Of a DNA stretch of 64,000 nt, positions 58,675-59,761 are shown piece by piece. Made by a program: the position numbers and the translations under genes. The DNA lies in IMG/VR virus record IMGVR_UViG_2913167280_000003, positions 1 to 64,000 of that record. The stretch is one strand, 5' to 3'. Under the pieces are notes generated by a model. It ran no database searches. It was not told where the DNA came from and was given only the letters and a program-made list of their open reading frames with translations. Every line of letters begins with the position of its first letter. Position 1 is the first letter of the stretch. The stretch comes from a virus. Taxonomy: Duplodnaviria; Heunggongvirae; Uroviricota; Caudoviricetes.

Positions 58675-59088
58675 ATGAAAAAGAAACATCTGTTGATTGC
58701 TGGTGACGTGCTGTTTGCCCTGGTTGCGCTCAGCTTGTGCGACCGTGACGGCCCGGCACCGGTAATCGTCGCTCAGCCATCCGCGCCGGGAGGGGGCCAC
58801 TATTACGATAACAGCGGGGTCTTCAGCGACTTGCTGATGGGACACCTGATGAGCGGTGGTGGCTATGGACACAGCAGCAATATCAACATCACGCATCATA
58901 CGACCGTCATTAAAAACTACCATCCGGCGCCGCGCTACAACGCCACCAGCGACCAAACGCTATTATGGCTCCAGCTCGTTCGCGCGCCGCTCAACCGTTA
59001 CGTCGCCTCCGATGCGTTATATCCGTCCGAGCTAGAGCCGCCACTGATGGTTATGCCCCTCCATCGTGGGGCTGTTTATTTGCCGTAA
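58675..59088 (+). CDS. plp: Putative lipoprotein (Plp-like)
   Basis: Start at the internal Met giving signal peptide MKKKHLLIAGDVLFALVALSLC with lipobox LSLC; Gly/His-rich mature region. Confidence 0.55.
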   Translation: MKKKHLLIAGDVLFALVALSLCDRDGPAPVIVAQPSAPGGGHYYDNSGVFSDLLMGHLMSGGGYGHSSNINITHHTTVIKNYHPAPRYNATSDQTLLWLQLVRAPLNRYVASDALYPSELEPPLMVMPLHRGAVYLP

Positions 59089-59761
59089 CACTCTTCTGGT
59101 TAGGGCTAATTGAGCCAACATCATTTTGCGTAGTGTTAACCTTTTCCCCTGGCACGGTTATATCTACCATTTTATAAAGTCCTTTTCTCAGACCTGTTAC
59201 GGCATCACCGTTAAAGAGTCCCCATATTGCAAACAAAAGGCCTATTGAGAAGGCTGTGGCAAAAAGTTTTGGTACACCAGAAAAAAGAAATTTTAATATG
59301 GCAATCCCATAGACTTGGGCACATTCCCAAAACCCCACGGGTTTCTTTATTTGCTTGCTGTATTTTTCTGCACCTTTAACCAGCTGCTTTATAGCATTTT
59401 TGTTTGCCTCATCTTTCTCTTTCTGGAGGGCTTTGATTTGGTTTTGATAAATATTCTCTTGCTGCTCAAAAATTGTTTCTAACCTTGTCTGCAACTCGTT
59501 GTTGACGCCAGAAACGTATCCATCTAAAATTTCCTGTGCGCTTCTTTTAAATACTTGAAGCTGCCTCGGTGACTTGAGGCATTGATCGTGGTAGGCCGCA
59601 AGCTCAGCCTCAATCTCGTATTCTTTTTTACCGGCCGCGCGAGCGTTACGAGCTATTTCGTCCTTAAAACCTTTATAAACCGCATACGAAAGAAGCTGCT
59701 CAATATTATTTGGATCTTTTACCAGCTCAGTAAAAATCCATTTCTTTGTTTGCTGAGTCAT
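59051..59761 (-). CDS. Hypothetical protein with C-terminal two-TM hairpin
   Basis: 236-aa ORF convergent with plp; coiled-coil-like N-terminal region then hydrophobic helices FWECAQVYGIAILKFLFSGV and LFATAFSIGLLFAIWGLF. Confidence 0.4.
   Translation of the reverse strand: MTQQTKKWIFTELVKDPNNIEQLLSYAVYKGFKDEIARNARAAGKKEYEIEAELAAYHDQCLKSPRQLQVFKRSAQEILDGYVSGVNNELQTRLETIFEQQENIYQNQIKALQKEKDEANKNAIKQLVKGAEKYSKQIKKPVGFWECAQVYGIAILKFLFSGVPKLFATAFSIGLLFAIWGLFNGDAVTGLRKGLYKMVDITVPGEKVNTTQNDVGSISPNQKSVTANKQPHDGGA

Follow-up and report, generated by a model that had tools for sequence, protein, structure and literature searches.

A conserved two-gene accessory cassette encoding a membrane-anchored coiled-coil protein beside the baseplate gene of a P1-like phage-plasmid

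Introduction

The window considered in this study is the whole stretch of 64,000 nucleotides at positions 1 to 64,000 of the IMG/VR virus record IMGVR_UViG_2913167280_000003 (Caudoviricetes), and it belongs to a P1-like (Punavirus) phage-plasmid. Between dmt and the homologue of the P1 baseplate gene 5 it carries two adjacent minus-strand genes, here called A and B, which encode a small basic protein and a membrane-anchored coiled-coil protein, respectively. A first-pass annotation had remarked only on B, which it took for a stand-alone inserted gene encoding a protein with two transmembrane (TM) helices, convergent with the lipoprotein gene plp and situated in a variable accessory slot. In this study, we describe the genes, boundaries, distribution and regulatory signals of the A-B pair and weigh the roles that it may play. 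We hold with high confidence that A-B is an accessory, non-structural cassette. Its features are the following, in the order in which the minus strand is read.

60265-60873, minus strand: baseplate gene homologous to P1 gene 5 (84% identity), with the right cassette boundary at its stop codon
60173-60201, minus strand: promoter-like site of the pair, with -35 TATACA (60196-60201), a 17-nt spacer, TG (60180-60181) and -10 TAGACT (60173-60178)
60154-60160, minus strand: Shine-Dalgarno sequence AGAGGAG of A, 6 nt before the ATG, conserved in the close-context alignment
59815-60147, minus strand: gene A, an open reading frame (ORF) for a 110-aa basic partner protein (PHROG 34496, E = 3.2e-60; WP_000214385; isoelectric point 10.9)
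59775-59798, minus strand: A-B intercistronic hairpin and T-run, degenerate allele (AAGCTCC-TTTGAA-GTGGCTT-TTTTTT)
59051-59761, minus strand: gene B, an ORF for a 236-aa membrane-anchored coiled-coil protein (PHROG 25194; WP_000194035 in RefSeq plasmids)
59055-59082, plus strand: hairpin GCCCCTCCATCGTGGGGC with a T-rich run, the left cassette boundary, found by terminator scan and terminator-like for plus-strand (C1-controlled) genes

Results

Genes A and B

Gene B begins with ATG, and its N-terminus, MTQQTKKW, is kept in homologues. The product matches PHROG 25194 over its full length (residues 1-234 against positions 1-234 of a 234-position profile; E = 1.6e-125). Close homologues fall into 36 clusters from Enterobacterales, all named 'hypothetical protein', and both PHROG 25194 and PHROG 34496 are annotated 'unknown function'. 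A profile search recovered 173 representatives at the 50% level, nearly all of them 180-270 aa long. Compared with the Klebsiella allele, the ratio of nonsynonymous to synonymous substitution rates (dN/dS) of B is 0.09 at a dS of 0.99, next to 0.08 for the neighbouring gene 5 and 0.44 for gene A. Judged by this pattern, B is a genuine gene under purifying selection, and the 236-aa minus-strand ORF proposed in the first-pass annotation is borne out by its ATG start, its homologues and its dN/dS. The notion that B arose by chance as a reading frame or is a pseudogene in decay, which the lack of annotation and the ubiquitous name 'hypothetical protein' could suggest and nothing else does, retains a negligible probability; it is refuted by the conservation pattern, that is, by the low dN/dS at a dS near one, by full-length homologues down to 20% identity that keep invariant residues and by the conservation of the start codon and ribosome-binding site (RBS).

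The product of gene A consists of conserved N-terminal (RRMPALSPEEIRKIS...) and C-terminal (LSQSxGRxYxQxSFNQVRK) segments around a variable linker rich in Ala, Ser and Lys. Its AlphaFold2 model has a predicted local distance difference test score (pLDDT) of 57, which is low confidence. A is a small, basic protein that by prediction does not fold stably by itself. The sequence RRMPAL in A was considered as a twin-arginine translocation (Tat) signal, a reading that was rejected because the segment after it is charged.

Architecture and topology of B

The AlphaFold2 model of B was run with 31 homologues, and family statistics were taken over 63 members of about 20-60% identity. The protein divides into five parts.

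59573-59761, minus strand: residues 1-63, a small helical N-terminal domain and the best conserved part (helices 9-13, 20-42 and 47-63, pLDDT 85-92)
59351-59569, minus strand: residues 65-137, one long helix, a coiled-coil-like stalk whose sequence and length differ between family members
59282-59335, minus strand: residues 143-160, a moderately hydrophobic juxtamembrane helix that ends in a conserved W/F-x-x-S-G turn; not a conserved TM helix
59207-59269, minus strand: residues 165-185, the sole conserved TM helix (Kyte-Doolittle 1.79)
59054-59206, minus strand: residues 186-236, a C-terminal tail variable in sequence and length (pLDDT <50)

The three helices of the N-terminal domain and the stalk helix (65-137) are modelled with a pLDDT of 85-94 over residues about 10-120, followed by helices of lower confidence at 144-160, 165-184 and 187-202 and by a disordered tail. 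The all-helical character of the N-terminal region is as the first-pass annotation had described it. The domain carries the motif W8-V9-x3-L13 ... Y26-x2-Y29-K30-x2-K33 ... H58-D59, in which Y26, Y29, K30 and K33 are invariant among the 63 sequences and W8, V9, L13, A37 and H58 are conserved in at least 90% of them. The last codons of B (PHDGGA) are the complementary strand of the terminator hairpin at the left boundary.

The pair of hydrophobic helices that had been proposed for the C-terminal part of B is well supported for one of its two members and doubtful for the other. The segment 165-185 is a robust TM helix, and its counterpart in the family has a mean Kyte-Doolittle value of 2.24 (at least 1.6 in 62 of 63 members). 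The segment 143-160, with E146 and K157 in it, scores no more than 1.28; the corresponding helix has a family mean of -0.04 with about 3.7 charged residues, and it is non-hydrophobic (below 1.0) in 61 of 63 relatives. A second segment of TM grade is present in only one of the 63 members. B therefore probably carries one conserved TM helix and is a single-pass rather than a two-TM protein. Since it has no signal peptide and its N-terminal part of 140 residues is charged, the N-terminal domain is presumably cytoplasmic, with an N-in single-pass topology as the default; the K+R content flanking the TM helix (1.84 versus 2.38) does not settle the topology by the positive-inside rule. A holin or spanin reading of B was rejected, as no lysis genes are adjacent and the TM helix lies C-terminal to a charged 140-residue domain that has no signal peptide.

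Boundaries, composition and comparison with P1

The cassette spans 1.19 kb and holds B and A between the plus-strand hairpin (59055-59072) and the gene 5 stop codon (60265-60267). In Cronobacter phage JK004, the hairpin that ends the lipoprotein gene (GCCCC...GGGGC) directly abuts the gene 5 stop codon, and in P1 a bidirectional terminator lies directly between dbn and gene 5, without the A-B pair. The GC content of the cassette is 0.39-0.45, compared with 0.55-0.60 in gene 5 and 0.58-0.59 in the lipoprotein-like ORF on its other side. By its conserved extended -10-like site, its AT-rich composition unlike the flanks and a precise presence/absence difference with respect to JK004 and P1, A-B would be a moron-type autonomous accessory unit, although no clear terminator of its own follows B.

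The interval between dmt and gene 5 in P1 contains trnA, trnT, plp, upl, tciABC, trnI, ban and dbn, and the first-pass annotation had correctly placed upl, tciABC and ban after plp. Their absence from the window is likewise confirmed: plp, upl, tciA, tciB, tciC, ban and dbn have no tblastn match (E ≤0.01) anywhere in the 64 kb. The P1 proteins matched in the window by tblastn are those of dmt (97%), gene 5 (84%) and gene 6 (99%). Moreover, neither B nor A nor the neighbouring ORF is homologous to Plp, Upl, TciABC, Ban or Dbn when all seven P1 proteins are compared by tblastn, so that the plus-strand gene with which B converges is not plp as had been supposed. The A-B pair resembles these P1 accessory genes in its map position between dmt and baseplate gene 5 and in convergent transcription ending at a hairpin terminator; it differs from them in having no sequence similarity to any of them and in being absent from P1. 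The content of the interval differs in each element compared, in support of the variable accessory slot that had been suggested.

P1: tRNAs, plp, upl, tciABC, ban, dbn
The window: split tRNA/HNH, lipoprotein-like ORF, B, A
Klebsiella P1-like elements: ban, small ORFs, B, A
JK004: ban, small ORFs, lipoprotein
pHYEC7-mcr1: TnpB, 311-aa ORF, 49%-identical A/B pair

Pairing and distribution

In every context examined, a small ORF lies on the same strand about 50-60 bp upstream of B. B is the second gene of a conserved A-B pair, and the view of it as a stand-alone inserted gene gives way to that of the distal member of a two-gene unit. The pair is found at 96-100% identity in P1-like elements of Escherichia coli, E. 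fergusonii and Salmonella, at 83% (A) and 85% (B) in Klebsiella P1-like elements, and at about 45% (A) and 49-58% (B), with gene 5 at 82-88%, in IMG/VR P1-like contigs and plasmids of the pHYEC7-mcr1 type. In the mcr-1-carrying P1-like plasmid pHYEC7-mcr1 (NZ_KX518745, 5550-6702) and about 16 similar plasmids, a divergent pair of 130 (A) and 233 aa (B, 49% identical) follows gene 5, and in pHYEC7-mcr1 a TnpB gene stands between this pair and dmt. Close relatives also occur outside P1-like elements: in a Dickeya integrative and conjugative element (ICE) the pair adjoins ccdAB and ArdC, in a Pantoea integrative island it is placed between type I restriction-modification/KAP NTPase genes and AbiH, and in lambdoid Cronobacter prophages it is found at the outer end, next to yejM.

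All these close-family copies outside P1-like elements keep gene 5 sequence upstream of A, namely its final 60-270 nt, and the Dickeya copy also holds the 3' end of the lipoprotein gene. The gene 5 fragments, which cover its last 60-90 codons, are 68-72% identical and lie at 9338-9523 in the Dickeya ICE, at 9277-9504 in the Pantoea island and at about 9480-9600 at the Cronobacter prophage end (locus coordinates). Because pieces of gene 5 are still attached, these copies descend from P1-like DNA, and their sequences show that parts of P1-like phage-plasmids have moved into unrelated mobile elements, namely an ICE, an island and a lambdoid prophage. The pair stayed intact while the attached gene 5 decayed or was truncated.

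Distant B homologues (24-33% identity) also have a small ORF upstream, of 58-102 aa. In a Pantoea P1-like element with a distant pair, a 142-aa ORF lies 22 nt upstream of B and the pair is convergent with dmt. Further distant pairs follow the tail-fibre and tail-fibre-assembly genes of a P2-like prophage, follow ssb in Dickeya, lie beside a polyvalent protein in Serratia, adjoin dcm/DUF4928, HNH and DUF3800 in one case and metabolic genes on both sides in another, and are carried by Enterobacter, Klebsiella and Photobacterium plasmids. Their small partners share a layout of helix, S,T-rich linker and helix. An hhalign comparison of the 110-aa A family with the distant partners of 58-80 aa was not significant and found a short C-terminal motif only; homology of the small upstream proteins is therefore unproven, although their architecture matches.

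The family is rare. A B homologue is present in about 25 of the 484 PLSDB plasmids that carry P1 gene 6 at ≥95% identity, i.e. about 5% of P1-like plasmids, and in 14 of 5,426 complete E. coli genomes. No tblastn match to B (E ≤1e-3) was obtained in 50,697 phage records, P1 included, so that the homology to a conserved P1 structural or morphogenetic protein which the first-pass annotation had named as contrary to its reading is not found. In pCUPF12A (NZ_CP182160, 1501-2988), an IS1A copy inside B splits it into a 66-aa N-terminal and a 184-aa C-terminal fragment, with gene A and the remaining P1-like backbone intact. The IS1 insertion in B beside an intact A, together with the rarity of the family, is a hint of dispensability or cost.

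Regulatory signals

The cassette is ordered as an extended -10 promoter-like site, a strong RBS, A, a hairpin with a T-run, a weak RBS and B. The -35 element of the promoter-like site matches the consensus at four of six positions, and a direct repeat (G/A-CAAAT) occurs at 60181-60186 and 60193-60198. The pattern TGnTAnnnT is found 33-34 nt before the start of A in all eight close contexts and at this distance from the start of the small upstream gene in three of six distant pairs. No C1 operator lies near the A-B pair. A P1 late-promoter-like element upstream of A was also considered and set aside, the match to LP26 being unconvincing.

A GC-rich hairpin with a T-run, ending 6-13 nt before the B start, is present in 12 of 16 contexts. 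Its stems differ (GCCCC/GGGGC, ACCCC/GGGGU, CGCCCC/GGGGCG, GCGCUA/UAGCGC and UGCCGC/GUGGCA). In a small subset of eight sequences with 6-nt loops, aligned in a register chosen by hand, 96.4% of cells are paired, three of seven pairs are compensatory and the covariation score is 0.321 versus 0.127 in shuffled alignments, none of 500 of which reaches it; in slid registers the signal collapses. The predicted folding energy is -10 to -15 kcal/mol in 12 relatives (-12.5 in the Klebsiella allele) and -4.1 in the allele of the window, which has one wobble pair and one mismatch; read-through into B may consequently be higher in this allele than in others. The conserved design, as read from these alignments, appears to be promoter, A, attenuator and B.

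On the minus strand, no terminator with a U-run was found after B. The RNA at 58960-59075, past the B stop and complementary to the 3' portion of the lipoprotein-like ORF, folds strongly (-48 kcal/mol, z-score -3.7) with no U-run after it; the fold may reflect no more than GC-rich coding sequence. The best sigma-70 consensus match of the region lies antisense within B (59502-59530, plus strand; TTGACG-17-TAAAAT, 10 of 12 positions), and a terminator-like hairpin is present on the plus strand at 59330-59344. The sigma-70 match may be a chance one, the region being AT-rich and such matches numbering 7 against 2.3 in shuffles.

The pair directly follows genes 26-25-7-24-6-5 on their strand, which raises the question of a late function in the tail/baseplate operon, such as that of an assembly chaperone, a membrane-associated factor for assembly or lysis timing, or a helper of injection, with read-through from gene 5 as the source of expression. 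No convincing terminator separates gene 5 from A (fold z-score -1.27), and distant homologues also lie downstream of tail genes. We nevertheless consider a late function very unlikely. The pair is missing from P1, JK004 and about 95% of P1-like plasmids, which share gene 5 and gene 6, and a conserved promoter-like site of its own precedes it. It remains whole next to a shortened gene 5 in two elements devoid of tail genes, an ICE and an island, and it also occurs on conjugative plasmids and at plain chromosomal loci; in an otherwise P1-like plasmid, IS1 interrupts B.

Comparison with known systems

Searches of Pfam, NCBIfam and PADLOC gave nothing significant for B, A or the 63 family members apart from coiled-coil noise; stray domain matches were CTD10 (6.7e-5, in one member) and DUF6074 (in three). 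In PADLOC-DB v2.0.0 the best matches of B are LeoBC (1.7e-4), LeoA (1e-3) and AbiZ (3e-3), at 15-19 bits and in the coiled-coil region, and A matches only RT at 1.3e-3. A profile search of the PDB with A found nothing below an E value of 0.27. With the B family profile, the only PDB matches below 0.01 are the best two, YaxA (E = 0.0027) and AopB (E = 0.0033), both of which align with the stalk and the hydrophobic segment. B resembles YaxA/XaxA and the type III secretion translocator AopB in having a coiled-coil stalk followed by a hydrophobic helical segment, and these matches are an architectural resemblance, not homology. Literature searches for WP_000194035 and WP_000214385 returned no description of either protein, and the pairing, promoter-like site, attenuator and topology of PHROG 25194 and PHROG 34496 appear in no record found.

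Several known systems share parts of this organization. A type II toxin-antitoxin module would fit the small-first gene order and the intercistronic hairpin, although the hairpin is degenerate in the window allele; no antitoxin DNA-binding fold (ribbon-helix-helix, helix-turn-helix, AbrB or Phd) and no known toxin of the type II families was found in Pfam or NCBIfam. ToxIN, reportedly described by Fineran et al. in PNAS in 2009, is said to be a type III toxin-antitoxin and abortive-infection (Abi) locus. The likeness of A-B to ToxIN is one of regulatory logic only (antidote gene first, a Rho-independent terminator, antidote in excess, plasmid-borne). A is not an RNA repeat array but a protein-coding gene whose product has conserved termini, and B is no endoribonuclease but helical and anchored in the membrane; the two loci share no homology. 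Lactococcal AbiZ and the two-gene AbiT, said to have been described by Durmaz and Klaenhammer in 2007 and by Bouchard et al. in 2002, respectively, are reportedly plasmid-borne Abi functions. B resembles AbiZ as a membrane-anchored protein, and A-B resembles AbiTi/AbiTii as a small-plus-larger gene pair of similar sizes; the PADLOC model of AbiZ matches B only at E = 0.0031 (14.9 bits, coiled-coil part) and neither A nor B matches Pfam AbiTii, so that the pair is a member of neither.

The superinfection-exclusion proteins HK97 gp15, reportedly the subject of work by Cumby et al. in J Bacteriol in 2012, and P22 SieA are said to offer a different precedent. They share with A-B the situation of an autonomous insert in or beside a temperate phage's block of tail genes, a composition unlike the flanks and an inner-membrane protein as product. 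They are single proteins, whereas A-B has an obligatory small partner and an intercistronic attenuator. The Pfam and PADLOC scans of the pair contained nothing similar to such exclusion proteins; no gp15 or SieA reference sequences were compared. On this precedent, B, helped by A, could block DNA injection or an envelope step in a non-toxic form of superinfection exclusion, with no suicide or addiction. The cassette comes directly after the baseplate and tape-measure genes in P1-like elements, distant homologues follow the tail-fibre and assembly genes of a P2-like prophage and the pair stands at the outer end of a lambdoid prophage, all of which favour such a role, as do the membrane anchor of B, a promoter-like site of its own outside C1 operator control and the rare and variable occurrence of the pair among P1-like elements. 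We judge it improbable all the same, in that it leaves unexplained the conserved terminator-like hairpin that would limit B and the retention of the pair where phage genes are lacking, at chromosomal sites, as well as on conjugative plasmids and an ICE, and no homology to known exclusion proteins was detectable in the Pfam and PADLOC scans.

About as improbable is a role in host physiology or regulation, in which B would be a membrane-tethered scaffold, a stress factor or a sequestered regulator and A would bind nucleic acid. The very basic nature of A (isoelectric point 10.9) and its conserved N-terminal strand/helix-like motif agree with this, as do the short direct repeat in the promoter region and the position of some distant pairs amid housekeeping or metabolic genes (ssb; a metabolic operon), and the invariant Y-x2-Y-K-x2-K face of the B N-terminal domain would suit the binding of a ligand or partner. 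Against such cargo, no known domain, for DNA binding or otherwise, is present in A, the family occurs patchily and mostly on mobile elements, and the composition of the cassette is foreign to its flanks.

Neighbouring plus-strand features

On the plus strand, the cassette is preceded by an ORF that converges with B.

58675-59088, plus strand: convergent signal-peptide/lipoprotein-like ORF, frameshifted with respect to JK004 gene_38; not a homologue of P1 Plp

Compared with JK004 gene_38 and the Dickeya remnant, this ORF has a 5-nt deletion near 58927, which causes the frameshift, and a 42-nt deletion near 59030. Its lipobox is a non-canonical LSLC, compared with LSSC in JK004, and the alternative frame at 58856-59035 still encodes the R/S/Y-rich C-terminus of the JK004 type; it may be a decaying gene. 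The overlap between the 3' end of B and this ORF, which the first-pass annotation had pointed out, does exist and measures 38 nt (59051-59088). In the JK004-type frame, however, the ORF would stop at 59033-59035, short of B, and the overlap looks like a by-product of the frameshift.

A perfect C1 operator (ATTGCTCTAATAAATTT) is located at 57311-57327, just past dmt, and a second site with two mismatches overlaps it on the other strand (57322-57338). The paired sites resemble the bivalent Oban operator of P1, though the window lacks ban; a plus-strand unit under C1 control would take in the split tRNA, the HNH ORF and the lipoprotein-like ORF. At 57495-57662 (plus strand) there are sub-threshold Rfam matches of the tmRNA type (24 bits, E = 0.03), which coincide with the stretch beyond the ban operator that is annotated in P1 as a 'dicF-like region'.

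A tRNA-Thr(UGU)-like gene (57996-58500, plus strand) is split by an ORF for an HNH endonuclease (58049-58468). The acceptor, D and anticodon arms precede the HNH ORF, whose ATG lies within the T-stem 'GATG', and the T-loop, the acceptor 3' strand and CCA (GGTTCAATTCCATCAACCATCACCA, about 58476-58500) follow its stop codon. ARAGORN calls no tRNA here, and the Rfam tRNA score of 25.2 bits falls short of the gathering score of 29. At this position trnA and trnT are intact in P1, and homology to P1 stops 25 nt into trnA. The same arrangement is shared by pCUPF12A, in which PGAP calls a 99-nt 'tRNA-Thr'.

Discussion

The regulatory layout of the A-B pair is unusually clear. If its conserved attenuator operates as its sequence suggests, B must be kept scarce relative to A, which points to an arrangement like that of toxin and antidote or of abortive infection. 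We think that some role of the pair in conflict, exclusion or addiction lies just on the probable side. Within that range, a conflict module of the toxin/antidote or abortive-infection type is the best explanation that we can offer, although we hold it with less than even confidence, and the more specific proposal that A restrains a dose-sensitive membrane effector, B, is at least as tentative.

According to this proposal, transcription from the constitutive promoter would supply A in excess and only some of the transcripts would pass the intercistronic terminator into B, so that the membrane effector would stay scarce, with A binding or silencing it. Infection by a different phage or loss of the element would deplete or titrate A; the freed B might then oligomerize via its stalk and disturb the inner membrane or block a membrane step, for example DNA entry, to the benefit of the carrying element. 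The system so designed would combine a constitutive promoter, a basic antidote, an attenuator and a coiled-coil effector that is tail-anchored and whose N-terminal domain, about 60 residues long and novel, bears the invariant Y-x2-Y-K-x2-K. That A-B founds a conflict system of two genes, so far undescribed, in the mobile elements of gammaproteobacteria, where it would serve abortive infection, exclusion or addiction, is an unlikely idea; nothing computed shows the pair to be a new kind of system, and it has no characterized relative.

Besides the hairpin, the proposal draws on the constant pairing of A with B, the signs of autonomy (promoter-like site, distance from C1 operators, composition, survival beside a decayed gene 5), the selection on both genes, the IS1 insertion and rarity, the membrane anchor of B, and neighbours such as ccdAB, ArdC, restriction-modification genes and AbiH. 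Several observations weigh against a toxin/antidote or abortive-infection module. Neither A nor B has significant similarity to toxin, antitoxin, Abi or defence families in Pfam, NCBIfam, PADLOC, PDB and fold searches. The close-family contexts are not independent, as the retained pieces of gene 5 indicate, and the defence-like neighbourhoods are accordingly weaker functional evidence; these 'defence islands' may just mark the landing places of P1-like DNA, and some distant pairs lie among ordinary chromosomal genes. The promoter-like site rests on a consensus match only and, as no terminator was found between gene 5 and A, the pair could also be expressed by late read-through. Finally, the weakened hairpin of the window (-4.1 kcal/mol) is unexpected if B is strongly toxic.

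Whichever role applies, the annotation of this locus is corrected: it holds a two-gene unit, its distal product is probably a single-pass protein, and the unit is unrelated to P1 plp. Should the pair have no part in conflict, it would be one more conserved hypothetical moron. If a defence, exclusion or addiction role holds true, A-B would be a small new system acting at the membrane, unusual for the attenuator built into it, and a role in conflict would mark the gene 5/terminator junction as a cargo site of P1-like phage-plasmids, a group that includes mcr-1 carriers such as pHYEC7-mcr1.

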